A DNA stretch of 64,000 nt from an uncultured Chloroflexia bacterium (GCA_963833225.1 CAWHXD010000017.1:192001-256000), one strand, 5' to 3'. Shown: positions 29,174-40,673, numbered from the stretch's first letter. Made by a program: numbers and translations. The notes: generated by a model not told the origin, from the letters alone.

Positions 29174-30559
29174 CTACGTCAGCGGGCGCGCCCGGTCCGT
29201 GGTGACCGTGCCCGCGTCGAGCGTCCGCGGGGCGGTGGCCTCGGGGGCGGTGATCCCGAGCGAGGGTGCGACCGTGGTGGCGTGCGTGACCGCGGCGCCG
29301 CGCCGAGCCGTCCCCCGCGTGCCACCGGCAAGGATGGTCCCCAGCCGCTCCAGGCTCGCGAGCGTCCCCGCCGGCAGGAAGTCGTCGATATACGGGTAGG
29401 CCGCCTTCATCCCCGCGGCCAGTGGCTGGTATCCGGGCGCGGATGCCAGCGGGTTCAGCCACACCAGGCGGTGGCAGTTGCGCCGCAGCCGTGCCGTCTC
29501 GGCGGCGACCAGCCCGGGGTCGCCGCGGTCCCAGCCGTCGCTCACGATGATCACCACGCCGGAGCTCCGCAACGTCCGCCGCGCCCACTTGTGGTTGAAC
29601 TCGCGGAAGCTCTCGCCGATACGGGTCCCGCCGGCCCAGTCGGTCACAGTCTCCGAGACGCGCGCGAGGGCCCGGTCCCGGTCGCGATCCTTCATGATCC
29701 GGGTCACCCGCGTGAGCCGCGTCCCGAACACGAACGACTCCGTGCGCACCTCGTTGGTGCGCGCCAGCGCCTGGGCGAATCGCAGCAGCAGTCGCGAGTG
29801 CCGCTCCATGGACCCGCTGATGTCGCAGATGACCACCAGCTGGCGCGGCTCGCGGATCTGGCGGCGCCAGACCCACTCGGTGAGTTCGCCGGTCGCGAGA
29901 TTGCGCCGGAACATGGCGCGCGGGGCCAGGCGCCGGCCGTGCGGGTGGAGCTCGTGCCGGCGGGTCCGCCGACGCTCCAGTCTCGGGCGAAGCAGGTCCA
30001 CGAACCGCTCCGCGTCGCGCAGCTCCGCGCCCGTCATCCGCTCGAAATCGCGGTGGCGCAGGACCTCACCGCGCGACCAGGCGTCCGGGGAGATCGTCTC
30101 GCCGTCGATCTCGGCGCCACTGTCGTCGGCGTCGGTCGTGAGCTGGACGCCCATGGTCGCAATCTCGGACAGGGTGGCGCCGGTGCCCTCGGCAGCCTCG
30201 TCCGATACGCCGGGCTCCCCTTCCTCGCGATCGGCGTCCGGCGATGATCCCTCCAGGCGTGGCCTGGGCAGCGATCGTCCGCGGCGGCGCCAGAACCGGT
30301 CGAACACGCGGTCGTAGATCTCGCGATCGTCCCGACGACGGACGAACATGGCCGCACCGGCATCGCGGACCTGGGCCTTGACGCCCATGTCGACCAGGGC
30401 CAGGGCCCGGGCGAAGTCGATCGCCGCGACCAGATCCACCGCGAGGCCCGCCGAGCGGAGCGCCCGACCGAACCCCACCGCCTCGGCCAGCAGGCGGCGG
30501 CCATCGACGGCTTCGCCGGTGTCAGCGACGAGGATCGGGGACGCGTCGAGGTCGGCCAT
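29174..30559 (-). CDS. coxE: VWA-domain CO dehydrogenase maturation protein
   Basis: MIDAS DISGSM, FVFGTRLTRVT, WAGGTRIG, SDGWDRGD, WLNPL. Confidence 0.9.
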   Translation of the reverse strand: MADLDASPILVADTGEAVDGRRLLAEAVGFGRALRSAGLAVDLVAAIDFARALALVDMGVKAQVRDAGAAMFVRRRDDREIYDRVFDRFWRRRGRSLPRPRLEGSSPDADREEGEPGVSDEAAEGTGATLSEIATMGVQLTTDADDSGAEIDGETISPDAWSRGEVLRHRDFERMTGAELRDAERFVDLLRPRLERRRTRRHELHPHGRRLAPRAMFRRNLATGELTEWVWRRQIREPRQLVVICDISGSMERHSRLLLRFAQALARTNEVRTESFVFGTRLTRVTRIMKDRDRDRALARVSETVTDWAGGTRIGESFREFNHKWARRTLRSSGVVIIVSDGWDRGDPGLVAAETARLRRNCHRLVWLNPLASAPGYQPLAAGMKAAYPYIDDFLPAGTLASLERLGTILAGGTRGTARRGAAVTHATTVAPSLGITAPEATAPRTLDAGTVTTDRARPLT

Positions 30560-30612
30560 GCGGGCACTGTGCCACGTCTGGGGAACCGGCGTCGCGGGTA
30601 CCCAGGGCTGGG

Positions 30613-31038
30613 TCAGTCCGGCAGCACGCGGAACCCGAGCGCGATCGCATTGGCCCGGATCCGCTCGTCAAGGCTCAGGAAGCTGACGTCACCGACCGCA
30701 TCGCGGACAACGAGCGCCGTGGCGCAGTGGATCGCATCCAGCGACCGGATGGCGTCGTCCGGGAACGGTGCCCTCGCCCGGGCCACGACGGCATCGCCGA
30801 TTGGCTCGACCGACCAGCCTGCGGCGAGCTCCCAGAGCCGCGTCCGCAGGCGTTCGACATCCGCCGTGTCGGCCGGGCGGCGCCGCGCCATGCGGTGAAG
30901 CGCACGGTCACACTCGATCAACGTGAGCGTCGACACGACCACCGGCGCCGGGGGCCGGAGCGCCGGGGCCACCCGCTCGCCGCCGGGCTCCGCGAGCAGC
31001 CAGGCGAGCACCGCGCTCGATTCGGCGTACACCGTCAC
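30613..31038 (-). CDS. VapC-like PIN-domain toxin
   Basis: YAESSAVLAWLLAE, TLIEC, IRSLDAIHCATA, LSLDER. Confidence 0.85.
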   Translation of the reverse strand: MTVYAESSAVLAWLLAEPGGERVAPALRPPAPVVVSTLTLIECDRALHRMARRRPADTADVERLRTRLWELAAGWSVEPIGDAVVARARAPFPDDAIRSLDAIHCATALVVRDAVGDVSFLSLDERIRANAIALGFRVLPD

Positions 31039-31334
31039 CGGTCGCCGCGCTCCCAGTCGATGAGGTCCTGGACGGTCAGTCCCCCGAGATCCAGCTTCGG
31101 CCGAGGCTGGTCGAACACGTCGGTCGGAACCTGGCGCGTGGGCAGCCGCAGACCGTCACGCCGGGCCAGCTCCAGTAGGCCCGGGTGGATCCCGGGCCGC
31201 GTGCCATGGCCCGGTGGCACCAGCTCGGCGACGACGACCCCCCGGTCCGTGACGATCACGACGTCGCCGGCTTCCACCTTGCGGATGTATGAGCTGAGCC
31301 GGTTCTTGAGCTCGCGGATGCCGACGGTCTCCAT
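31035..31334 (-). CDS. Phd/YefM family antitoxin
   Basis: METVGIRELKNRLSSYIRKVEAGDVVIVTDRG; overlaps toxin start; TACATT 7 nt before ATG. Confidence 0.88.
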   Translation of the reverse strand: METVGIRELKNRLSSYIRKVEAGDVVIVTDRGVVVAELVPPGHGTRPGIHPGLLELARRDGLRLPTRQVPTDVFDQPRPKLDLGGLTVQDLIDWERGDR

Positions 31335-31507
31335 GTCCCCCAATGTAGCCACGAGAGGCCACATGGTCAACCCGACGTCAGCCTGGACCCAACACCATGG
31401 CAACCTCGTGATCGCACCGGGATAGGCGTCGCTCACGACCGAAGCTATCGTCGCGGGGCGCAACAGGACGGCTTCAGGACGCCGGCTCGCGTGGCAACGA
31501 CCGCCGG

Positions 31508-32245
31508 TCAGTCGAGGATCAGCCTCGCGCGCTGGAAGCGGGCCAGGGCAGCCCCGAGCAGGAGGAAATCGGCCACGACGAGGAACAAGGCCGCTACGAC
31601 CCCGATCGTTGCCCAGTCGAGACCGCTCAGCGTCTCGAACAGCTGCCGCCGGATGTCCTGCGGCAGGACCCCCATGACGAGCGCGGGGATGAGCACAACC
31701 GCGAAGATCGCAAGGTTCATGTTCTGCGCCGCCTGGCGCACGGTCGGTGCCCGCAGCGCCACCAGTGCTCCTCCACATGCCACGAACGAGGCGCCGAGGA
31801 GCCCGAAGCCGCCGAGCAGCACGATCGCGAGGGGGTCATACATGAGGAGGCCGTTGCCTGCGTTTGTCACGTTCACCGTGATGAGACCCAGCAGGGCGCT
31901 CACCACCATGAAGCCCCAGCCGTACGCCACCGCGGCCACGACCTTGCCGACCAGGATCGCTCGATCGGAGAGCCGACTCGCAAGCAGGGTTTCAAGCGTG
32001 TGGCGCTCCCGCTCTCCCGCGATCCCATCGGCGATGACGCCGCTCGCGAGCAACAACGGGACCCAGGCAAAGGGGAGGATGGCCACCGGCTCGCGCACGA
32101 GGTCCGGCCCGATCTGGAGCGGTAGGAAGACCCCGAAGATGACCAGCGAGAACGCCAGCCCGCGGAGCGACTTCTTGAGGCTTCCCGACGCGAAGAGGAG
32201 ACCGCGAAGATCCTTCCAGACGATGGTGAGGGCGTCCGCGATCAC
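31508..32245 (-). CDS. ABC-2 type exporter permease
   Basis: IAGERERHTLETLLAS...ILVGKV; multiple TM segments. Confidence 0.85.
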   Translation of the reverse strand: MIADALTIVWKDLRGLLFASGSLKKSLRGLAFSLVIFGVFLPLQIGPDLVREPVAILPFAWVPLLLASGVIADGIAGERERHTLETLLASRLSDRAILVGKVVAAVAYGWGFMVVSALLGLITVNVTNAGNGLLMYDPLAIVLLGGFGLLGASFVACGGALVALRAPTVRQAAQNMNLAIFAVVLIPALVMGVLPQDIRRQLFETLSGLDWATIGVVAALFLVVADFLLLGAALARFQRARLILD

Positions 32246-33174
32246 GCCTCACCCCCGACGAGCGTCATGAAGGCTTCCTCGAGGTCCGCGCTTCCTTTGC
32301 GCACCTCGTCGATGGCCACGCCCTCCTCGACCAGCAGGGCGACCACGGGCGCGGTGTCGACGCCGTCGCGCAGCCGCAGCGTGAGCTTCCCGTCATCGAG
32401 CTCGACCGATGCTGCGGCCGGCTGGGCATGCACGAGGGCTGCGATCCTCGCGTCGATCCCTCGTCCCGTGATCTCCATCCGCCCCGATCCGGCACGCGAC
32501 CGCAGCTCGTCCGGCCGGCCCACGGCGAGCAGCCCGCCGCGGTTGATCACCCCAACGAGGTCGCAGAGCTTCTCGGCCTCGGCCAGGTTGTGCGTCGTCA
32601 GGAACACGGTCACGCCTTCGCGCCGCGCCAAGGCCGTCAGGTCCTCGCGCAGTGCCGCAGCAGCGATTGGGTCGAGCCCCGCGGTCGGTTCGTCGAGGAA
32701 CACGAGGGCCGGCCGATGGAGCAGCGTCCGGGCCACGGCGAGCTTCTGCTTCATGCCGCGGCTCCAAGCGCCCACGATCTCGCGCCTGCGCTCCCACAGG
32801 TCCAGCCCGGTCAGGAGCTCCCTGACGCGTGCCTGGCGCTCAACGCTCGAGAGGCGCCACACCCGCGCGTAGAAGTCGAGGTTGTCCTGGGCAGTCATCC
32901 GCTCGTACAGCCCGGGGTGTTCGAGCAGAGCGCCACAACGTTCGCGGATCGCGCCCGCGTCGGTCCTGGTGTCGTGGCCGAGCACATCGGCGATCCCCGC
33001 GGTCGGTTCGAGCAGGCCCAGGAGCAGCCGGATCGTCGTCGTCTTGCCCGAGCCATTGGGGCCAAGGAAGCCGAAGATCACGCCCGTGGGCACGTCGAGC
33101 GACAGCCCGTCCACGGCGCGGAGCACGCCAAAGTCGCGGGTCAGGTCACGCGTATGGATGGCGAGATCGGGCAC
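32242..33174 (-). CDS. ABC exporter ATP-binding protein
   Basis: GPNGSGKTT, WSRGMKQK, FLDEPTAGLDP, LTTHNL; GGAGAGG RBS. Confidence 0.9.
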   Translation of the reverse strand: MPDLAIHTRDLTRDFGVLRAVDGLSLDVPTGVIFGFLGPNGSGKTTTIRLLLGLLEPTAGIADVLGHDTRTDAGAIRERCGALLEHPGLYERMTAQDNLDFYARVWRLSSVERQARVRELLTGLDLWERRREIVGAWSRGMKQKLAVARTLLHRPALVFLDEPTAGLDPIAAAALREDLTALARREGVTVFLTTHNLAEAEKLCDLVGVINRGGLLAVGRPDELRSRAGSGRMEITGRGIDARIAALVHAQPAAASVELDDGKLTLRLRDGVDTAPVVALLVEEGVAIDEVRKGSADLEEAFMTLVGGEA

Positions 33175-33420
33175 GTAGTCCCTCTCCTGCGCGGCGTATC
33201 TGGGGAGTCGTCCAATTCTAGTCGCCCGCTGGGCCGGCCCGTCTGTATGCCGCCACCCGCCACGATGGCACGATCGTGACCGCGTTCCGACGGCAGTGGG
33301 CGTGCGGCCATTCGGTCCGAACAGGCCCCCATCGGGCAGCATCTGGTGCGCCACCGGACCGAGGAAGCCGAGCCAGTCAAGAGCCGTCGCGCGCGAGCGC
33401 AGGCAGCGCGTGCGCGCGAC

Positions 33421-33450
33421 GTCCGCGAGCGTGCGCCGATGCAACGTGAC
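33421..33450 (+). repeat. 30-bp cassette-boundary site, copy 1
   Basis: GTCCGCGAGCGT-GCGCCG-ATGCAACGTGAC. Confidence 0.7.
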
Positions 33451-33504
33451 GGGGTCGGGAGCGGACGGTGCGATACTGCCGAAACCCAACCCTCAGGAGG
33501 CAAC

Positions 33505-33747
33505 GTGACTGAGACAGCCACACCGAAGCCGGCTGCGCCTGGCTTCGTCGTCCTGCGTCAGGTCGGCGGGGACCGCTGGCAAATGCTGGGCGAGGTCCGT
33601 CGAAGGCAAGGGCTTCCCGCCAGAGCCGCCCGAACGCAGGCGATCCTTGATGCGACGAACGGCGAGGCGAAGGCCGGCGAGGTTTACGCGGCCGTCCTTC
33701 GCAGCGAGTGGCGGATCGCCATGGACTGGGTGCCCCCGAAGGCCTAG
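33505..33747 (+). CDS. Small hypothetical protein (80 aa)
   Basis: AGGAGG RBS, GTG start; sole gene between sites 1 and 2. Confidence 0.65.
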   Translation: MTETATPKPAAPGFVVLRQVGGDRWQMLGEVRRRQGLPARAARTQAILDATNGEAKAGEVYAAVLRSEWRIAMDWVPPKA

Positions 33748-33762
33748 GCACAGGACCGCGGG

Positions 33763-33792
33763 GTCCGCGAGCGTCCGGCAGTGTCACCTGAT
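33763..33792 (+). repeat. 30-bp cassette-boundary site, copy 2
   Basis: GTCCGCGAGCGT-CCGGCA-GTGTCACCTGAT. Confidence 0.75.
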
Positions 33793-33820
33793 CGAAGGGC
33801 GGTCGTTCTGTGGTGCCGCG

Positions 33821-34012
33821 CTACCGGTAGCCGCCCTTGCCGTCCTTGCGAGCGAGCTCGACCCGCCGGAGCTGCGCTGGGTCGAGGTCGGCCTGTCGCT
33901 TGCCGTCGATGTCGGGCGGCGGTGCGTCGGTTGGAGGTGACTGCGGCAGCAGGCTCGCGATCGTGCCGACAACCCGCTTGAGCGCGGCCACCGCGGGCGT
34001 GATGAGCGACAT
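33821..34012 (-). CDS. Small hypothetical protein (63 aa)
   Basis: GGAG RBS; MSLITPAVAALKRVV...KDGKGGYR. Confidence 0.45.
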   Translation of the reverse strand: MSLITPAVAALKRVVGTIASLLPQSPPTDAPPPDIDGKRQADLDPAQLRRVELARKDGKGGYR

Positions 34013-34147
34013 CAGGGACTCTCCATAAGGGCGCATCCGCACCCGAGCGCATCATGCTCGGCAAGGGAAGCCCGGTCAATCGAGCAGCCGCCACACCCCG
34101 GACGGCCAGTCGGTTCGGGGGGCTCGGCTTCCAAACGCGTGATTCGC

Positions 34148-34669
34148 TCAGGGCGCAAGCGCGGCGCGCACCCGCTCCGGATACTTCTTCTCCGCGGCCG
34201 TCGCATTGCCTCCGAACGTCCCGCCCGGCACGACGACCTCCACGAGCAGGTTCTGCACGCCGACCCACTCCGAGTGCACAACGCCGTCCCAGCTGACGGT
34301 GCCGCGCGGACCCTGGATGCTCATTCCGCCGAACCCGGGCTGCATCGCCATGCGCTCGGCGGGGGTTGGGTAGACCAACACGACCCCGATGGCTCTCCCG
34401 ATCCCCTTGGCCGTGGTGGTGGTTCCGCGATAGACGAGCTCCGGAAAGACGCCCATGTCGCGATCGTCGGTGGTCGCCACGAGCGAAAGACCGGGATCCA
34501 AGGTCTGGAGTCGGCCCTCGATGTCGGCGAGCGCAAGTGGGGCTGCGGCGGGCGTCGGCTCCGGGGCGACGGATGCCACGCTCGCAGCCGGCGGGGGCAC
34601 GGGAGGCGTCGATGCACACGCCGCGAACACCGCCGCCGATGCTGCCAGGGCGAGAAGCCGCTTCATCAT
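34148..34669 (-). CDS. Hypothetical lipoprotein
   Basis: MKRLLALAASAAVFAAC lipobox, Pro/Ala linker. Confidence 0.65.
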   Translation of the reverse strand: MMKRLLALAASAAVFAACASTPPVPPPAASVASVAPEPTPAAAPLALADIEGRLQTLDPGLSLVATTDDRDMGVFPELVYRGTTTTAKGIGRAIGVVLVYPTPAERMAMQPGFGGMSIQGPRGTVSWDGVVHSEWVGVQNLLVEVVVPGGTFGGNATAAEKKYPERVRAALAP

Positions 34670-34779
34670 GTCCCGAAATCGCTCATTGCTGGAGCCATCT
34701 TCGGCTCCGGGACACGCCAGTCAAGAGCGAGCGGGCACGCGTCCCTGCCCCGAGGCCCTCGACCGCTCCCGCTGCGCCG

Positions 34780-35136
34780 CTACTTCGCTGCCCAGCCGGA
34801 CAGGGGCTCTGGTGGCGCGGCGAACCCCCCACTCGCGAGGATGTCAACGCCGAGGACATCGCGGCACCATTCGACATACCAGCGGTCGTAATCCGAGTTC
34901 TCCGGATCGAATACGCGGCTGCCCATCAGCTTCAGGTCCTCGGGCTCGATGTCGTAGGTATTGACCCGAAGGTCGAGGCCGCTTGAGAGATGGCTGGCCC
35001 ACATCGCATGCGCCTTCAGCCGAAACCTCGCGTTGAGGGCCTCGTACTCGACCCGGTGTTCTTCAAGCTCGGTGGCCAGTCGCCGGGCTCGGTCCATCGT
35101 TCCCGGGAGGATGGGCTTGGCGGCTCCAAACAGCAT
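34780..35136 (-). CDS. Hypothetical protein
   Basis: AAGGAGG RBS; MLFGAAKPILPG...DRWYVEWCRDVLGVD. Confidence 0.65.
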   Translation of the reverse strand: MLFGAAKPILPGTMDRARRLATELEEHRVEYEALNARFRLKAHAMWASHLSSGLDLRVNTYDIEPEDLKLMGSRVFDPENSDYDRWYVEWCRDVLGVDILASGGFAAPPEPLSGWAAK

Positions 35137-35290
35137 GGTCGCGCCTCCTTCCGACTTGATGGGCAACGAACGCGGGCGTGATGACCGACATCGAGGGACC
35201 TCCCTCACGGGCGAATCGGCGCCCGAGCCCCATCATCCTCGGCTTGGTTGGCGCGGGTCAATCGACCCTGCGGAACCACGGTGCCCGCCG

Positions 35291-35322
35291 GGGTCCAGTG
35301 CCGCCCGGCGGCCCCCTGGACG
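35291..35322. repeat. REP-like palindromic element, family B copy 2
   Basis: GGGTCCAGTG...GGCCCCCTGGACG, matches 9058-9093. Confidence 0.45.
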
Positions 35323-35342
35323 CGCGGTGCCACAACCGGTTC

Positions 35343-35519
35343 CCGCCAGGGAGTCAGAGCACGACTGTTCGTCGCGGGCTCTGTCCCCGGCGACATCGGA
35401 TCTGCTGTCGGTCAGCCACCAGACGACTACGTGTCAACCGGGCAGGCCGACACGGGCCCCGACCTGGGCGTCGACGCCGCCGGGCCGGGACGAGCAGTCG
35501 TCCTGTGACTGGCTGGCAG
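35343..35519. repeat. Long imperfect inverted repeat (REPIN-like), family A copy 2
   Basis: Arms 35343-35373 and 35489-35519; right arm 26/31 identical to 14292-14322. Confidence 0.65.
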
Positions 35520-35632
35520 GAATCGCCCGATGCGGAAACAGGCCGGTCTTAGGGCCTGTAGCCGATTGATCCCGCACGAACTACCACGTTTGTGCCATTC
35601 AAGTTGACGCTCCCGGCTGTCAGGCTGCCCTC

Positions 35633-36482
35633 ATGGGCGCGGTGACCGAGCTGACGGACGAGGAGTGGGGGCTGGTCAAGCACTTGTTCGACCCGCCCAC
35701 GCATCGCGGCGTCAAGGGCACGATCCCGCGACGCGACATCGTGGACGCGATCCTGTGGGTCGCCCGGACCGGCTGCCAGTGGCGGCACCTGCCCGACGGG
35801 TTCCCGGACTGGCAGGCCGTGTGGAGCCAGTGGCGTCGGTGGCGGGACAACGGCACCTGGGCAGCCGCGATGCGCGTGCTCGCGCGGGAGATCCGGCTCC
35901 GGCACAAGCGCACGGCGGACCCGACGATGGTCATGATCGACGGCCAGACGGTGAAGGGCGGGCGCGGCGGGCCAACGTTCGACGAGGCCGGCGGGCGCGG
36001 CGGCTACACGCGCGGCGCCAAGCGCACGATCCTGATCGAGATCCTCGGGCTGCCGCTTCGCGGTGTCGGTCAAATCGGCCAAGCCGCACGATGTCCAGTC
36101 GGCGCGGCGGATCCTCAAGGACCAGCTGGACGCGCCCCCAGCCCAGCAGCCGAAGCTACCTGGCCTCCAGGCCATCGTCGCCGACCGTGGCTACACGGGC
36201 CTCGCCGCGCTGGCCAACACCCACGGCCTCAACCTCGACATCAAGCGGCCGCCCCCCGCCCCGATGCTGCCGCCCGCGAAGCCCGGCGGGAAGCCGAGGA
36301 AGGGCAAGCGCACCTTCACCCCGATCCGTCCGCTCTACAAGGTCGAGAACGCCTTTGCCCGGCTCGGGATGTGGCGCCAGCTGTCTCGGTGCTATGAGCA
36401 GACGGCGCTCGGCGCGCAGACCTGGCTCGAGGTCGCCTGCGTCGCTTACCTGTGCGGGAGGCTGCGCGTCGAGCCGACGTAG
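35633..36482 (+). CDS. IS5 family transposase (frameshift near 36058)
   Basis: LTDEEW, AILWVARTGCQWRHLP, DDE triad in IDGQTVK / ADRGY / VENAFARL. Confidence 0.9.
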
Positions 36483-36970
36483 GCGCCCATCAGGCGCGTC
36501 GTAGCCTGGACGAGAACGCCCCAGAGGAACGTAATCGGCAGAGCGGCGATCACGGCGGCCGCGCCGTAGAACACCAGCCCGTAGAGGCCAAGCACGGCGA
36601 CCGCACCCACCACTTCGAGCGGACCGCTGACCCCGACCCGAAGTTCCGCCGGCTGACTCGCGAGCATGGTTGCGACATAGGCGAGAGCACCGAGTGGGAG
36701 CCCGATGAGGATCGCGGCGATCGATCCACCGAAGGCGGTCCAGCGATCGCCCGGGGCAACGCCGGGACCGAGCAGCCATCCGACAACCAGCGCGACGGGC
36801 ACCGCGACGACCACGATGGGCCCGGCATCTGGCGTGGACGTGACGGGCATGCCGAGGAGCAGCGCAAAGAGGGGTGCGAACAGCACGGCGGCCGGTATCC
36901 CCCACAGGGCACCGACCACGTGTGCGTTGGTCCTCGGTGACACCGCTAATGTGATACTCACAGGTAGCAC
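36446..36970 (-). CDS. Passenger integral membrane protein inside the IS5
   Basis: About five hydrophobic segments; TTGACA-N17-CATTGT promoter at 36997-36969 inside the right IS end; exact start uncertain. Confidence 0.55.
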   Translation of the reverse strand: MLPVSITLAVSPRTNAHVVGALWGIPAAVLFAPLFALLLGMPVTSTPDAGPIVVVAVPVALVVGWLLGPGVAPGDRWTAFGGSIAAILIGLPLGALAYVATMLASQPAELRVGVSGPLEVVGAVAVLGLYGLVFYGAAAVIAALPITFLWGVLVQATTRLMGAYVGSTRSLPHR

Positions 36971-37133
36971 AATGGTTCAAGGGCCTCGACTTGTCAAGCG
37001 GGTGGCGTAATCGGCTACAGGCTCTGAGTGACTCCCCCTTCGCCGGTAGCCATCGCCCCATCAAGCACGCGATCGGGAGGCTCGATGGGTCGCTGAAGCT
37101 CTGCTGACGCCGGTCGAGCCGCATGGCGGCATC

Positions 37134-37163
37134 GTCCGCGAGGGTGCGCCAATGACACCTGAC
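37134..37163 (+). repeat. 30-bp cassette-boundary site, copy 3
   Basis: GTCCGCGAGGGT-GCGCCA-ATGACACCTGAC. Confidence 0.8.
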
Positions 37164-37201
37164 CCTCAGCACCGCCGACCCAGCTCGCAGGCCTGTGCAG
37201 G

Positions 37202-37720
37202 TCACATCGCCGAGGGGGTGCCGACGCGTTCGAGGACGGCCTCGACCTGCGGCAAGGCAGCGAGGTACTGGCGGTCGGCCAACTGCTTGAGCGCCACGAA
37301 CAGAGCGGTCGCGACGACATCGGCAAGGACGAACGCGGCAAGACTGGCGACGGTGCCCAACAGGAGCAGCGGCGCGGCCAGCACCAGCCCGAGGCTGATC
37401 GCGATCGGCCAGTCCCACTTGCTCGCGGGTGTGGTCGCGCGACCGACAAGCCGCGTACCTGTGCCCTGCGGGACGAGCTCACCTCGGACTTCGAGGGCGA
37501 GCGGGTACTGCGTGTGGATCCGCCCGGGCTCACTGTGCGCGTCGATCAGGAGGTCGAGCCTCCGCCCCCCGACCGACCCGCGCACGAGCCAAAACGACCA
37601 GGTGGCATGCCCCGCGTCCTCGTAGCGCTCCTCGGCGATGGCGCGCCCGATCGCGGCCGCGACCGCGTCTGGTGGCACGTCCCACCTGGCACTGACCGAG
37701 CGACTGATGAGCGATCTCAC
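37202..37720 (-). CDS. Hypothetical membrane protein
   Basis: GGGGAG RBS; soluble N-terminal part, two C-terminal TM segments; sole gene between sites 3 and 4. Confidence 0.6.
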   Translation of the reverse strand: MRSLISRSVSARWDVPPDAVAAAIGRAIAEERYEDAGHATWSFWLVRGSVGGRRLDLLIDAHSEPGRIHTQYPLALEVRGELVPQGTGTRLVGRATTPASKWDWPIAISLGLVLAAPLLLLGTVASLAAFVLADVVATALFVALKQLADRQYLAALPQVEAVLERVGTPSAM

Positions 37721-37807
37721 AGCGGACCTCGCGCTCTCCCCGCTCTCATCGTCCGAGCGACCTTCGCCCTGGTCAAGGTGCCGTTCGTACCGAGACGTGG
37801 CGGCCCG

Positions 37808-37837
37808 ATCTGCGAGGGTGCGCCAATGTCACCCGGC
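37808..37837 (+). repeat. 30-bp cassette-boundary site, copy 4
   Basis: ATCTGCGAGGGT-GCGCCA-ATGTCACCCGGC. Confidence 0.75.
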
Positions 37838-37840
37838 AGA

Positions 37841-38035
37841 TCAGCAGCGCGACAGAGCGAGGATTGCCGTGCCGGAGGCCAGGGCGACAGCGGACCACAG
37901 GCCGACCGACGCCCATGGCAGGACGGCGAACATCGGCGTCAGGAGTGCCCACGCTGTGTAGGCAAGGCCTACACCAGCAACAGCAATCAGGCTGCCACCG
38001 GCGACGCTGCCGACAACACGCGCCAAGGTCCTCAT
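37841..38035 (-). CDS. Small two-TM membrane protein (64 aa)
   Basis: AGGA RBS; hydrophobic; stop 3 nt from site 4. Confidence 0.45.
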   Translation of the reverse strand: MRTLARVVGSVAGGSLIAVAGVGLAYTAWALLTPMFAVLPWASVGLWSAVALASGTAILALSRC

Positions 38036-38388
38036 CGATTGTCCTGGACGATCGCCGCGGCCCATACGGGTCGCCTGGGTCGCAATGCGTCCGCGCAATG
38101 TCCCCTGATGCAGGTGGGGATCACCTGGGCAGAGGGGCATCCCACCATCGAAGCGCGAGGGCACGCTGGACTTCGCGCGGATCGCCCGCGAGCAGGTCTC
38201 GAAGGACCTCAGTCTGGTTGGCGAACGCCCGTGCAATCTCAAGGGCGTCAGCCGCGCTCCGGGCCTGCGACAGCGATCTGCCGGAGCGCCTTCGGGCCGG
38301 AGAAGGAGCGCTCGTCGGTGTCGCCGGTCGATTGACCGTGCCCTGGTTGTCCTTGGAGGCTCACGGGCAGATAGTACGCACTGGCAAT

Positions 38389-38418
38389 CTCCGCGAGCGT
38401 GTGTCAACCACACCTGGT
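38389..38418 (+). repeat. 30-bp cassette-boundary site, copy 5
   Basis: CTCCGCGAGCGT-GTGTCA-ACCACACCTGGT. Confidence 0.65.
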
Positions 38419-38474
38419 GACCAGCTAGGGGCGGACGCGCTTGGATGAGCCGCAAAGCCCGTCCGCGTTAGGAG

Positions 38475-38783
38475 CTACGGACTTGCGCTCGGTCCCGGCT
38501 CGGCGCGCAGGCACAACTTGCCTTCGGGGGTGCCGAACTCGGCGTCGGATCCAGTCGGGCACGTGGCGTCCCTGCCCACCCAGGAGAGAACAACGTGGGT
38601 GTGTGGGCCGGAGCAGTCGGCGTTCCCGATCTGCTGGTGGTCGCCATCCGCCGACCCGTCGAAGTTCACGCACGCGCCGTCAGGGAAGCCGTCAGCCACG
38701 TCGTCGCGCTGTCGGCATGCCCCGATGGAAGCCGCGACCAGGAGCGTCCCCAGCAAGAACGGCAAAACGCGCAGTGATGTCAA
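38475..38783 (-). CDS. Small Cys-rich lipoprotein
   Basis: IGAC lipobox; GACV...DCSGPH...CPTG...LCL four-Cys pattern; start uncertain. Confidence 0.55.
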   Translation of the reverse strand: MTSLRVLPFLLGTLLVAASIGACRQRDDVADGFPDGACVNFDGSADGDHQQIGNADCSGPHTHVVLSWVGRDATCPTGSDAEFGTPEGKLCLRAEPGPSASP

Positions 38784-38947
38784 TCGAAGGCACTGAGCCC
38801 GATCGACATGACCCCTGCCCACGCGATATAGGCAAGCGCGAGGACGAGCACTCCCGCCAGGATCTGCCTTCCAGTCAATCGAGACACAGTCGGGTTCCTC
38901 GTGCGCAGCTGCCGCTGCGTATGCTCGTCACGATAGATGAGGCTTTG

Positions 38948-38977
38948 GTCCGCGAGCGTTTGCAGATGTCACCCGAG
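38948..38977 (+). repeat. 30-bp cassette-boundary site, copy 6 (contains the stop codon of the upstream minus-strand gene)
   Basis: GTCCGCGAGCGT-TTGCAG-ATGTCACCCGAG; TCA at 38969-38971 is the TGA of ORF 38969-39532. Confidence 0.78.
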
Positions 38978-39532
38978 ACGGGCGAACGGCACCGGCTCCC
39001 GACCGCCGACCAGGTCCGCAAGCGCGGCGACGACAGTGCGCATCGACGTGTCGGCTAGGTAGCAGTCATAGCCGTCGGCGATGCACTCGAATGTGGAGTC
39101 ATGGAAGCCGAGGATGAAATGGCGCAAGCGCTCGAACCGCTCAGGCCGATGCAGGGGATGCACCCGGTTGGCCGCCTCCAGCTCCCGGATCCACGCGCTG
39201 CCCATCACCTCAGCCGCACCGTAGTGCCCTGCGTCCGCCAGGCCGCTCGACCAGAGCGCGTGCCCGTGAAGGGCCTCATCGTTCAGGCCACCGAGCACAG
39301 CCCCGCGACAGTCGAGCCACTCAACGATGCCGATCTCGCCTTGGTTCGGTTCCTCGGGAGGCAGAGCGGTGAGCGGCCCGAGCTTGAGGGCGGTAGCGGC
39401 GAGCCCGAACGCCAGGAACGTCCGAAACTCGGACTGAATCAGCACCGGCTCGGGCGCACCCGAATCCCAGCCGAGACCGATATCGATCGGATGGACCTGC
39501 TCGCCAGTGGTTTGGTCGTGTCCGAAACGCAC
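38969..39532 (-). CDS. Conserved hypothetical protein
   Basis: GGAGG RBS; GAPEP, NDEALHGH, HFILGFHDSTFECIA look like a real conserved family. Confidence 0.7.
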   Translation of the reverse strand: MRFGHDQTTGEQVHPIDIGLGWDSGAPEPVLIQSEFRTFLAFGLAATALKLGPLTALPPEEPNQGEIGIVEWLDCRGAVLGGLNDEALHGHALWSSGLADAGHYGAAEVMGSAWIRELEAANRVHPLHRPERFERLRHFILGFHDSTFECIADGYDCYLADTSMRTVVAALADLVGGREPVPFARLG

Positions 39533-39643
39533 ACTGCCTCCGATCGCCGCTCTCGGATAGGCCGGCTCGTCGAGCAGCGAAGTATCGACCGATTGTGAGG
39601 GAAATGGAGGACCCGGGGTCCGGACAAGTCACGCCAGGTTCTC

Positions 39644-39673
39644 GTCCGCGAGTGTCATCTCCCCCGACCGCGC
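39644..39673 (+). repeat. Terminal half-site (left arm only) of the cassette array
   Basis: GTCCGCGAGTGT-CATCTC-CCCCGACCGCGC, 37 nt from the coxD stop. Confidence 0.6.
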
Positions 39674-39710
39674 AACCGCGATCCGTGCCCGTGCGGCAGA
39701 AGCGCCGGGG

Positions 39711-40673
39711 TCAGACCCCGCTCGCGCCCGCCTCGGCGAGGTACTGCCGCGCGGCGGCGCCTCGGACCTGCCGGATGTCCTCCTCGTACTTGAGGACCAC
39801 GCCCAGGGTCTCGTCCACGAGATCCGGGTCAAGCTCGGTCGCGCCCAGGGAGAGCAGCGCTCCGGCCCAATCGAGCGTCTCGGCAACCCCCGGGACCTTG
39901 GTCAGATCGGCCGTGCGCAGGCGGTGGACAAAGGCGACGACCTCGTGGGCGAGGCGCGCGGGGACGTCCGGCACCCGGGTGGAGACGATCTCGAACTCCT
40001 TGTTTGCGGTCGGGTAGTCGATCCAGTGGTAGAGGCAGCGCCGCTTGAGGGCGTCGTGCACCTCGCGGGTCCGGTTCGACGTCAGGATCACGCGCGGGGC
40101 CTTCGTGGCCCGGATGGTGCCGATCTCGGGAACCGTGACCTGGAAGTCGGACAGGATCTCCAGCAGGTAGGCCTCGAACTCCTCGTCCGCGCGGTCGATC
40201 TCGTCGATGAGCAGGACTGGCGGCGTGCCCTCGTGGTCCTCGAGCGCCTGGAGGAGCGGGCGCTTGAGCAGGAACTCCGGGCCGAAGATGTCGTGCGCCG
40301 ACGCCTTCGCGATGTCGCCGCGAGCCTCGAGGAGGCGGATCTCCAGCATCTGCCGCGGGTAGTTCCACTCGTAGACCGCGGTGTTGACGTCGAGACCCTC
40401 GTAGCACTGGAGGCGGATCAGGCGCGCGCCCAGGCTGGAGGCCAGGACCTTCGCGAGCTCCGTCTTGCCCACGCCGGCCTCCCCCTCAAGAAGTAGCGGG
40501 CGGCCAAGCTCCAGGGCCAGGAAGACGGTGGTCGCGAGCGAGCGCTCGGCGATGTACCCGTGGCTGCGGAAGGCGTTCGCGATGCCCTCGATGGATCGGG
40601 TCGCCTCGGGGCGGTCCTCGCGGGCGGCGGACCGGGTGGCGGCGGAGGTCACGGGAGTGGGCTGATCAACCAT
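39711..40673 (-). CDS. coxD: MoxR-family AAA+ ATPase
   Basis: LEGEAGVGKTE, RLQCYEGLD, LLIDEIDRAD, TSNRTREVHDALKRRC, PGVAETLDW. Confidence 0.92.
   Translation of the reverse strand: MVDQPTPVTSAATRSAAREDRPEATRSIEGIANAFRSHGYIAERSLATTVFLALELGRPLLLEGEAGVGKTELAKVLASSLGARLIRLQCYEGLDVNTAVYEWNYPRQMLEIRLLEARGDIAKASAHDIFGPEFLLKRPLLQALEDHEGTPPVLLIDEIDRADEEFEAYLLEILSDFQVTVPEIGTIRATKAPRVILTSNRTREVHDALKRRCLYHWIDYPTANKEFEIVSTRVPDVPARLAHEVVAFVHRLRTADLTKVPGVAETLDWAGALLSLGATELDPDLVDETLGVVLKYEEDIRQVRGAAARQYLAEAGASGV

Follow-up and report, generated by a model that had tools for sequence, protein, structure and literature searches.

A gene-cassette array between coxE and coxD in an uncultured Chloroflexia bacterium, and the large serine recombinase that may have built it

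This article concerns a row of small genes, most of them set off from the next by a copy of the same site of about 30 bp, that separates coxD from coxE in the genome of an uncultured Chloroflexia bacterium. The genome is a 3.89-Mb assembly (71% GC, 86% complete), and the stretch of it that we analysed, 64,000 nucleotides long (G000:C17:192001-256000; GCA_963833225.1, CAWHXD010000017.1), is called the window throughout. A first-pass annotation, made by a model from the sequence alone, had seen here a gene-cassette array served in trans by a recombinase and built on sites of the tyrosine-recombinase, or dif, class. The array and the lack of a recombinase in the window have stood up to analysis; the class of site has not. 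We lean instead, short of confidence, toward the window holding an orphan, recombinase-less array of a cassette system driven by a large serine recombinase (LSR).

The locus

The conserved flanks of the array all lie on the minus strand: coxE (VWA_CoxE) at 29174-30559, a PIN toxin and Phd/YefM antitoxin pair at 30613-31334, and coxD, which encodes a MoxR-type AAA protein, at 39711-40673. In this genome the coxD–coxE interval measures 9151 bp. Across the 16 fetched loci of the genus that hold both cox genes it is 6-34 bp in five, 443-918 bp in seven, 1240, 1907 and 3982 bp in three, and 3213 bp in G008, the sole locus of the 16 to carry sites (four of them). Three relatives (G013, G432 and G430) keep the toxin–antitoxin pair, yet have 31-41 bp in place of the 8,335 bp that stand here at 31373-39707; in G008 the insertion is replaced by 2.36 kb, with cassettes unrelated to those of the window. 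The first-pass annotation had proposed just such a comparison of the interval across relatives, and gene content does differ there, the differences breaking at the sites. The same annotation had counted the toxin–antitoxin pair as cargo. The pair stands between coxE and coxD in the three relatives named and in G008, and is absent from five relatives whose cox genes abut. Since it is conserved in relatives without the array it belongs to the flank, and represents an earlier insertion into this hot spot.

Six copies of the site, all on the plus strand, lie at 33421-33450, 33763-33792, 37134-37163, 37808-37837, 38389-38418 and 38948-38977. A repeat search of the window returns them as one family, D1, with spacings of 342, 3371, 674, 581 and 559 bp; a position weight matrix (PWM) built from the six recovers all six; and each carries TC at positions 2-3. 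Four of them match the 30-mer of the first-pass annotation at three or fewer mismatches (the first copy, an attL-type site in terms introduced below, with exactly three), against no match in 100 shuffles. Two shortened copies, also on the plus strand, accompany them: a variant at 38089-38110 with 9 bp missing internally, and a terminal copy at 39644-39669 in which the left arm is followed directly by TGTCAT, its distal block lying 10 bp nearer. A possible decayed site, weak, is visible at 35237-35266 on the plus strand, where homology to another array of this genome, on contig C7, begins. Genes crowd up against the sites, one stop codon (TCA at 38969) lying within the site at 38948 and another, at 37841, just 3 nt past the site at 37808. 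The coordinates, the two shortened copies and both stop codons are as the first-pass annotation had them, and we likewise find no PF00589 or PF00239 match inside the window. It had suggested a PWM scan, even scatter of the hits being the outcome that would count against a cassette array. Over the whole 3.89-Mb genome the scan gives 11 matches at or above 25.3, the next best scoring 18.6, and these form three clusters only: the window (6), C7 at 465-469 kb (3) and the start of C15 (2). Strong sites in this genome are clustered, not scattered, and relatives have arrays too.

Of the genes set between the sites, most are on the minus strand and one is on the plus strand. The latter (33505-33747, 80 aa) has AGGAGG 8 nt 5' of its GTG. 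On the minus strand follow a small gene of 63 aa (33821-34012), a putative lipoprotein gene (34148-34669, 173 aa), genes of 118 aa (34780-35136) and 172 aa (37202-37720), a gene for a two-TM membrane protein of 64 aa (37841-38035), a lipoprotein gene (38475-38822) and a gene of 187 aa (38969-39532). Nine cassette proteins of the window, those of 80, 173 and 118 aa included, match no Pfam, PHROGs or NCBIfam family. The 5' end of the 63-aa gene is duplicated: 33990-34031 and 35169-35210 hold copies of it and its ribosome-binding region that are 78-88% identical, the second of which opens just a short overlapping open reading frame (ORF) before the 118-aa gene. An IS5/IS4-type insertion sequence (35549-37026, plus strand) interrupts one cassette, the C7 paralogue of which is without it; its DUF4096 and DDE_Tnp_1 parts lie in two frames, which suggests a frameshift. 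A minus-strand ORF inside the element (36446-36970) may be spurious, and a weak match to the Rfam Chloroflexus-1 RNA on the minus strand at 35476-35616 (24.6 bits, for a gathering score of 181.5) is most likely due to chance. The left part of the insertion holds an ABC-2 permease gene (31508-32245) and an ATPase gene (32242-33444), and no site stands to the left of these two.

A polar family of sites

The core of the site family is AGYGTGCGSSAATGTCAC. In a logo of 102 sites T2, A8, G9, G11, T12, C14, G15 and A18-C25 are near-invariant, with a weak leftward extension of conservation to -16. The first-pass annotation had described two partly symmetric arms of about 12 bp around a variable 6-bp spacer. 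Neither feature survives the larger sample: positions 13-15 are conserved and 16-17 alone vary, being C or G, while a search for global dyad symmetry gave several weak centres, none of them dominant, and no dyad with a 6-8-bp spacer. That annotation was right in holding that the sites are not attC. Folding the 102 sites with their flanks gave a mean z of -0.2 and no common hairpin, be it attC-like or a terminator. Three Rfam matches were below threshold and none fell at a site, and the flanks have neither a period-3 signal nor a fixed frame, as a coding sequence would.

Same-strand arrays recur in relatives of the genus, where the PWM finds 19 sites in G017, nine in G001, six and one in G010 and four in G008. 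A 24-mer pattern, at three or fewer mismatches, has matches in 91 of the 401 family genomes (G121 included) and in 20 of its 49 genera, against 6 matches for the reversed control; the pattern undercounts genera other than that of the window. Farther afield, at least 119 stretches matched exactly when one genome per species was scanned, about as many as chance would give across the whole collection. Single matches in distant taxa are therefore uninformative and arrays of 3-8 sites informative. Among the matches listed, arrays occur in metagenome-assembled genomes (MAGs) labelled Gaiellaceae, Actinomycetes, Acidimicrobiia, Propionibacteriaceae, Limnocylindria, Chloroflexi, Dormibacterota and Thermoanaerobaculia.

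We assembled 116 loci, of which 113 have at least one site and 48 at least three, at a median spacing of 723 bp (interquartile range 488-1294). The sites of a locus point the same way almost without fail, a minority-strand copy turning up in one of 107 scanned loci (L079). Directly past the 20-site array of G017, at L022 (G017:C6, 3014-5808), lie an FtsK/SpoIIIE-family gene of 875 aa and an HTH_17 excisionase-type gene, a transfer module like that of an actinomycete integrative and conjugative element (AICE).

Were these dif or pdif sites, they would be recombined in trans by XerC/XerD or another tyrosine recombinase. Their length of about 30 bp and the way direct repeats bound modules do recall pdif, and two Xer-like genes lie on the contig of the window, at C17:46044 and C17:89453. 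The likely dif of this genome, however, is a 28-bp sequence at C8:75830-75857 that is unlike the array site and is single copy; at up to three mismatches it occurs once, and never more, in 9 of 32 genomes of the genus. The PF00589 genes of G000, G017, G001, G010 and G008 are either distant from the arrays or on different contigs, and, as said, the site has no suitable dyad. One tyrosine recombinase does abut an array, at L038, and its kind is not required for one: 46 of the 401 family genomes have it, and none of the 31 sampled from the genus of the window. The protein there (G311:C2, 7352-8281) is Xer-like and 310 aa long; with up to five copies per genome, 67-81% identity across genera and a habit of lying at contig ends, it behaves as a mobile element of its own. 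A site of the dif/pdif class is, on this evidence, very improbable.

A Rep protein and an LSR beside the arrays of relatives

No gene conserved beside most arrays emerged when 10,239 ORFs of about 105 loci were clustered, no family reaching more than 12 loci. A better candidate came only from a phmmer search of the ORFs with the window genome's own recombinases. Four arrays have a serine recombinase of about 470 aa lying 1.4-3.6 kb past the right end, always in company with a protein of about 250 aa. The larger protein has Resolvase, Recombinase and Zn_ribbon_recom domains and is therefore an LSR; the smaller matches PF23343, rolling-circle Rep proteins of the ORF2/G2P type with an HUH-type motif. 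All 11 loci that include the Rep side have the same plan: one to 11 same-strand sites, then rep on the same strand, then a convergent LSR gene. Of four further loci, three are truncated at contig ends and one is degenerate. Between the last site and rep lies variable cargo of 54-2766 bp. At the far end, an inverted copy of the site motif stands 20-35 nt 5' of the LSR start codon in 14 of 14 loci, and no second site was found within 20 kb past the Rep-LSR module in the six loci that were extended. A half-site that seemed to lie at the start of the rep homology was rejected, the boundary being no more than the point at which the coding region of rep opens.

More distant LSRs (35-42% identity), which come without Rep, have no such arrays. 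In two species of one genus, L039 and L040, both flanks and the Rep-LSR module are about 84% identical while the cassettes differ, the pattern that a resident platform with a changing array would produce. The LSR scores weakly to the CcrA/B/C models of NCBIfam. A single-protein query of IMG/VR found no relatives of it, and an alignment query returned only integrases at 28-38% identity. One genome holds a second copy of the module at L173 (G311:C3, 8191-9608), in which the LSR gene is broken by TGA stops and the flanking sites are intact.

Two kinds of half-site

The inverted copy beside the LSR gene offers a way into the anatomy of the site. In motif orientation, 12 of 14 such copies show GA at positions 2-3, where the array sites have TC in 72 of 102 (and T2 in 93). 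GA being the reverse complement of TC, both kinds of site must carry TC on one strand, equidistant from the conserved arm. In the six LSR-proximal ends that were aligned the TC is invariant, and in five of them the outer arm has an AGYGTG proximal block at the same distance from it, followed by a distal block, A-Y-S-TCAC, 5 bp nearer the centre.

This arrangement has a counterpart in the attachment sites of known LSRs. According to PMC3783163, the zinc-ribbon-domain (ZD) motif of an attP half-site occupies positions 16-24, that of an attB half-site lies 5 bp nearer the centre, and the recombinase-domain (RD) motif sits in the same place in both. With the centre set between T2 and C3, the conserved distal block of the right arm (positions 18-26 in the 102 sites) falls at half-site positions 16-24. 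The left arm of the same sites mirrors both blocks of the right, the proximal block peaking at shift 0 (z 6.2) and the distal block at shift +5 (z 9.8, against 2.2 at shift 0), a geometry that emerged only when the two blocks were tested separately. The family has, then, a central dinucleotide common to partner sites and half-sites of both P-type and B-type spacing, and we think it likely that these are attachment sites of the LSR type. On this geometry the array sites would be attL-type hybrids (B-TC-P') and the LSR-proximal site an attR (P-TC-B'). To the right of the orphan C7 array are two sites with a 5-bp-shifted, attB-type right arm, which is what excision of a Rep-LSR element would be expected to leave.

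With rep so constantly at hand, the sites might instead be double-strand origins for the rolling-circle protein, replication starting at one and ending at the next to yield a single-stranded cassette circle, with the LSR integrating the Rep-LSR element only. A rep gene on the same strand and a short way downstream, at 11 of 11 loci, is the usual arrangement of origin and rep, and the site is asymmetric and strictly polar. The inverted motif at the LSR end, on the other hand, has an invariant TC and a shifted outer arm, as attL and attR of an LSR do, and an origin would have no use for it; the sites form no hairpin; and the window genome has no Rep that we could find. We regard origins as unlikely.

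A second possibility is that the motif regulates transcription, a -10-like (S)AATGT with a factor-binding site that accompanies acquired genes, the breakpoints being by-products of recombination between short repeats. The LSR-proximal copy does read TGnTAATGT, then 6-7 nt, then ATG or GTG, as would an extended -10 for a leaderless mRNA; array sites hold the related (C/G)AATGT; and YGT at positions 1-2, 11-12 and 21-22 gives the 10-bp period typical of tandem protein binding. Set against these are cassette genes in both orientations (among array genes of one hydrolase-cyclase family, five are minus and four plus relative to the sites), distances from site to start codon that vary and keep no frame, mirrored blocks in the left arm of the kind expected of a recombination site, and, as described next, modules common to several species that run exactly from site to site. 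A purely regulatory motif seems to us improbable.

Cassettes as modules

Units that move as cassettes should be shared between genomes with their ends at the sites, and several are. A cassette from the cox locus of G008 and one from the C7 array of the window genome match over 501 bp at 90% identity, the homology ending at sites. Within the window genome, the lipoprotein cassette at 38475 and its C7 copy are 95% identical; starting from position 2 of the preceding site (38389) the two are the same rightward, and their left flanks differ. The 172-aa cassette recurs at 88% identity on a metagenome contig (L166), from 37144 to 37836, that is from site to site, among unrelated neighbours. Other site-to-site modules are 90-98% identical between different species. 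Across all loci, counting BLAST high-scoring segment pairs (HSPs) that are 200 bp or longer and 80% or more identical, 25 of 145 HSP ends fall at a site in both loci, the sites making up 1.1% of the DNA; the 15 starts among them all lie between offsets -3 and 11, and the 10 ends all between offsets 23 and 31. This sharing between species suggests that the cassettes are mobile.

Recurrent cargo, named by reading the sequences, includes alpha/beta-hydrolase-adenylate-cyclase, peptidase-like and cupin-like families and IS256-type transposases, which point either way relative to the sites. In the C7 array, at about 464.0-465.4 kb, a 1.39-kb IS110-family element lies exactly 10 bp past a site, which it parts from the lipoprotein cassette. 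Insertion into the attC sites of integrons by IS1111-group elements is a comparable case.

Population variants of the window array were read from Logan assembled contigs of six runs, which covered 6-13% of the sampled words, and each rests on a single bridging contig. One contig joins 38949 to 39646 and so omits a 696-bp cassette, that of the 187-aa gene; the seven ambiguous letters at the joint are the left arm common to the site at 38948 and the partial site at 39644. Another joins 33757 to 35244, skipping 1486 bp, and its right breakpoint falls in the possible decayed site. A contig from another sample reaches 34740 with a site-like sequence just before it that the window lacks, and contigs over coxD part from the window at 39729/39730. 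A joint from 36429 to 38647 was disregarded, having only 21 letters on one side. The two joints would fit recombination at the sites.

These modules also bear on a less eventful history, in which the arrays are graveyards: scars of repeated Rep-LSR integration and decay at hot spots, the cassettes being leftover cargo that never moved singly. Rep-LSR elements do bring variable cargo between their attL and rep, the sites of the window genome include decayed and shortened ones, and insertion sequences pile up in arrays. Single cassettes are nonetheless 88-98% identical between species with unrelated neighbours on both sides, and one is present or absent with its junction in a site; no Rep or LSR fragments were found among the array ORFs, nor any attR-type (opposite-strand) sites within arrays. 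Simple accumulation of this sort strikes us as quite improbable.

How such arrays might grow

We come back, then, to LSR-driven cassettes. Each site would consist of a weakly conserved B left arm, a TC crossover at positions 2-3 and a strongly conserved P' right arm. The LSR, acting in trans, would cut at the TC. When a pair of direct sites recombined, the cassette between them would come free as a circle with one hybrid site on it, and an attB-type site at the end of an array would then take up either that circle or a Rep-LSR element together with its cargo. In this way arrays might be built and reshuffled much as in integrons, with different chemistry and different sites. The array of the window is probably inactive at present: its enzyme was not found, and several of its sites are shortened or decayed.

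A good deal weighs against this account. According to PMC3783163, canonical LSRs recombine attP with attB only, need a directionality factor to recombine attL with attR, and align attL with attL antiparallel. An array of attL-type sites therefore calls for a non-canonical reaction or some other history: either the enzyme is permissive, or the arrays arose differently, or Rep takes part. Transposon-type and Ccr-type LSRs are said to be permissive. The attP that the scheme predicts had no match in IMG/VR or in any of the 401 family genomes, and the 31-41 bp of the empty cox loci resemble neither the repeat nor an attB. Most arrays are without the enzyme: of the 401 family genomes 91 have sites and 28 the LSR, sites occurring in 12 of these 28 and in 79 of the 373 others (Fisher p 0.017, the relatives not being independent of one another). 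No LSR or Rep of this family was found in the 86% complete assembly of the window genome. The geometry has its own weaknesses. Its centre was placed at TC post hoc, after the TC/GA relation had been seen; there are unexplained further peaks, at +10 for the distal block (z 7.3) and +4 for the proximal block (z 5.7); and the shifts in the shortened sites of the window are 9 and 10 bp instead of 5. The P arm may double as the extended -10 promoter of a leaderless LSR mRNA, in which case conservation of the motif is partly regulatory. Finally, both contig joints could equally come from homologous recombination or slippage between repeats, and no excised cassette circle was seen in the assembled contigs.

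Relation to known systems

The likeness to integrons is plain. Here too are variable arrays of small, mostly single-gene, unrelated cassettes with one site each in a common orientation; close relatives keep the platform but not the content, as at L039 and L040; and many arrays lack a recombinase, those of the window genome resembling clusters of attC sites lacking integron-integrases (CALINs). Even the IS110-family element beside its site finds a parallel in the IS1111 elements of attC. The differences are as plain. No IntI-type recombinase lies beside the arrays and no attC hairpins with R'' and R' boxes are found; the site is a conserved, duplex-type sequence of about 30-45 bp without a hairpin, unlike the folded attC of 57-141 bp; the recombinase is a serine enzyme, genes lie in either orientation, and the platform includes a rolling-circle Rep.

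With the LSR integrases of phages and AICEs (A118/LI, Bxb1, phiC31) our LSR has in common the Resolvase, Recombinase and zinc-ribbon domains, and the sites a central dinucleotide. In the source cited above, the P distal motif is likewise at 16-24 with that of B 5 bp nearer, and the integrase gene abuts one att site. Those systems have one attL and one attR and are unidirectional, whereas here up to 20 tandem attL-type sites accompany a single attR.

The nearest precedent may be the staphylococcal cassette chromosome (SCC) and its enterococcal counterpart (ECC). SCC, psiSCC and composite islands grow by tandem accretion mediated by the LSRs CcrAB or CcrC, with direct-repeat att sites parting the units; units without a recombinase are thought to be moved in trans, and the units measure tens of kilobases and sit at the 3' end of rlmH. 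Tandem, partly recombinase-less units at one locus are common to both. Here, by contrast, the median unit is 723 bp, there are several loci per genome, the site lies outside conserved genes, and Rep stands alongside the LSR. Membership of the SCC group itself does not hold: the arrays are at coxD and the toxin–antitoxin pair and at two other loci, not at the 3' end of rlmH (orfX), and scores to the Ccr models are far below cut-offs.

Two further comparisons are instructive. The pdif modules of Acinetobacter plasmids are also small gene modules between recombination sites whose enzyme is encoded elsewhere, with dif-like sites of about 28 bp in alternating orientation; ours differ from dif and all point one way. 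Tandem ssrA islands of Dehalococcoides and the tycheposons of Prochlorococcus, some of which have serine recombinases, combine direct att repeats and cargo in a hypervariable island. Their repeats are the 3' ends of tRNA or tmRNA genes and their units kilobases long, unlike the free-standing site and single-gene units seen here. By enzyme and type of site, the arrays belong with LSR systems; functionally they are integron-like.

A second cassette economy?

LSR-bounded arrays of single-gene cassettes went undescribed in the literature covered by a full-text search, supplements and subscription journals lying outside its scope, and there is a fair chance that the arrays are a distinct gene-capture system. 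Tentatively, and at rather less than even odds, we picture a 'serine integron': a platform of LSR and rolling-circle Rep that stores single-gene cassettes between tandem attL-type sites and exchanges them as circles with one hybrid site. Its range, put forward just as tentatively, would take in soil Actinomycetota and, provided that the MAGs are labelled correctly, further phyla, Chloroflexota among them. Integrons are to date the sole well-understood system that stockpiles single-gene cassettes, and integron surveys have reported them missing from Actinobacteria.

Should Rep prove to move the cassettes instead, the arrays would represent a new kind of rolling-circle gene shuffling. If the LSR builds them, it would be acting on tandem attL-type sites outside the attP × attB rule, which bears on how directionality is controlled. 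The arrays would then also offer a natural catalogue of LSR attachment sites, and sets of LSR and att with many variants of the kind that genome engineering can use. For the bacteria themselves, a system built by an LSR would mean that high-GC soil lineages own a cassette economy, with sites in 91 of the 401 genomes of this family; it would explain hypervariable islands of orphan genes and give a handle on mobile adaptive genes in MAGs. It would be, if true, a second and mechanistically independent invention of the integron principle.

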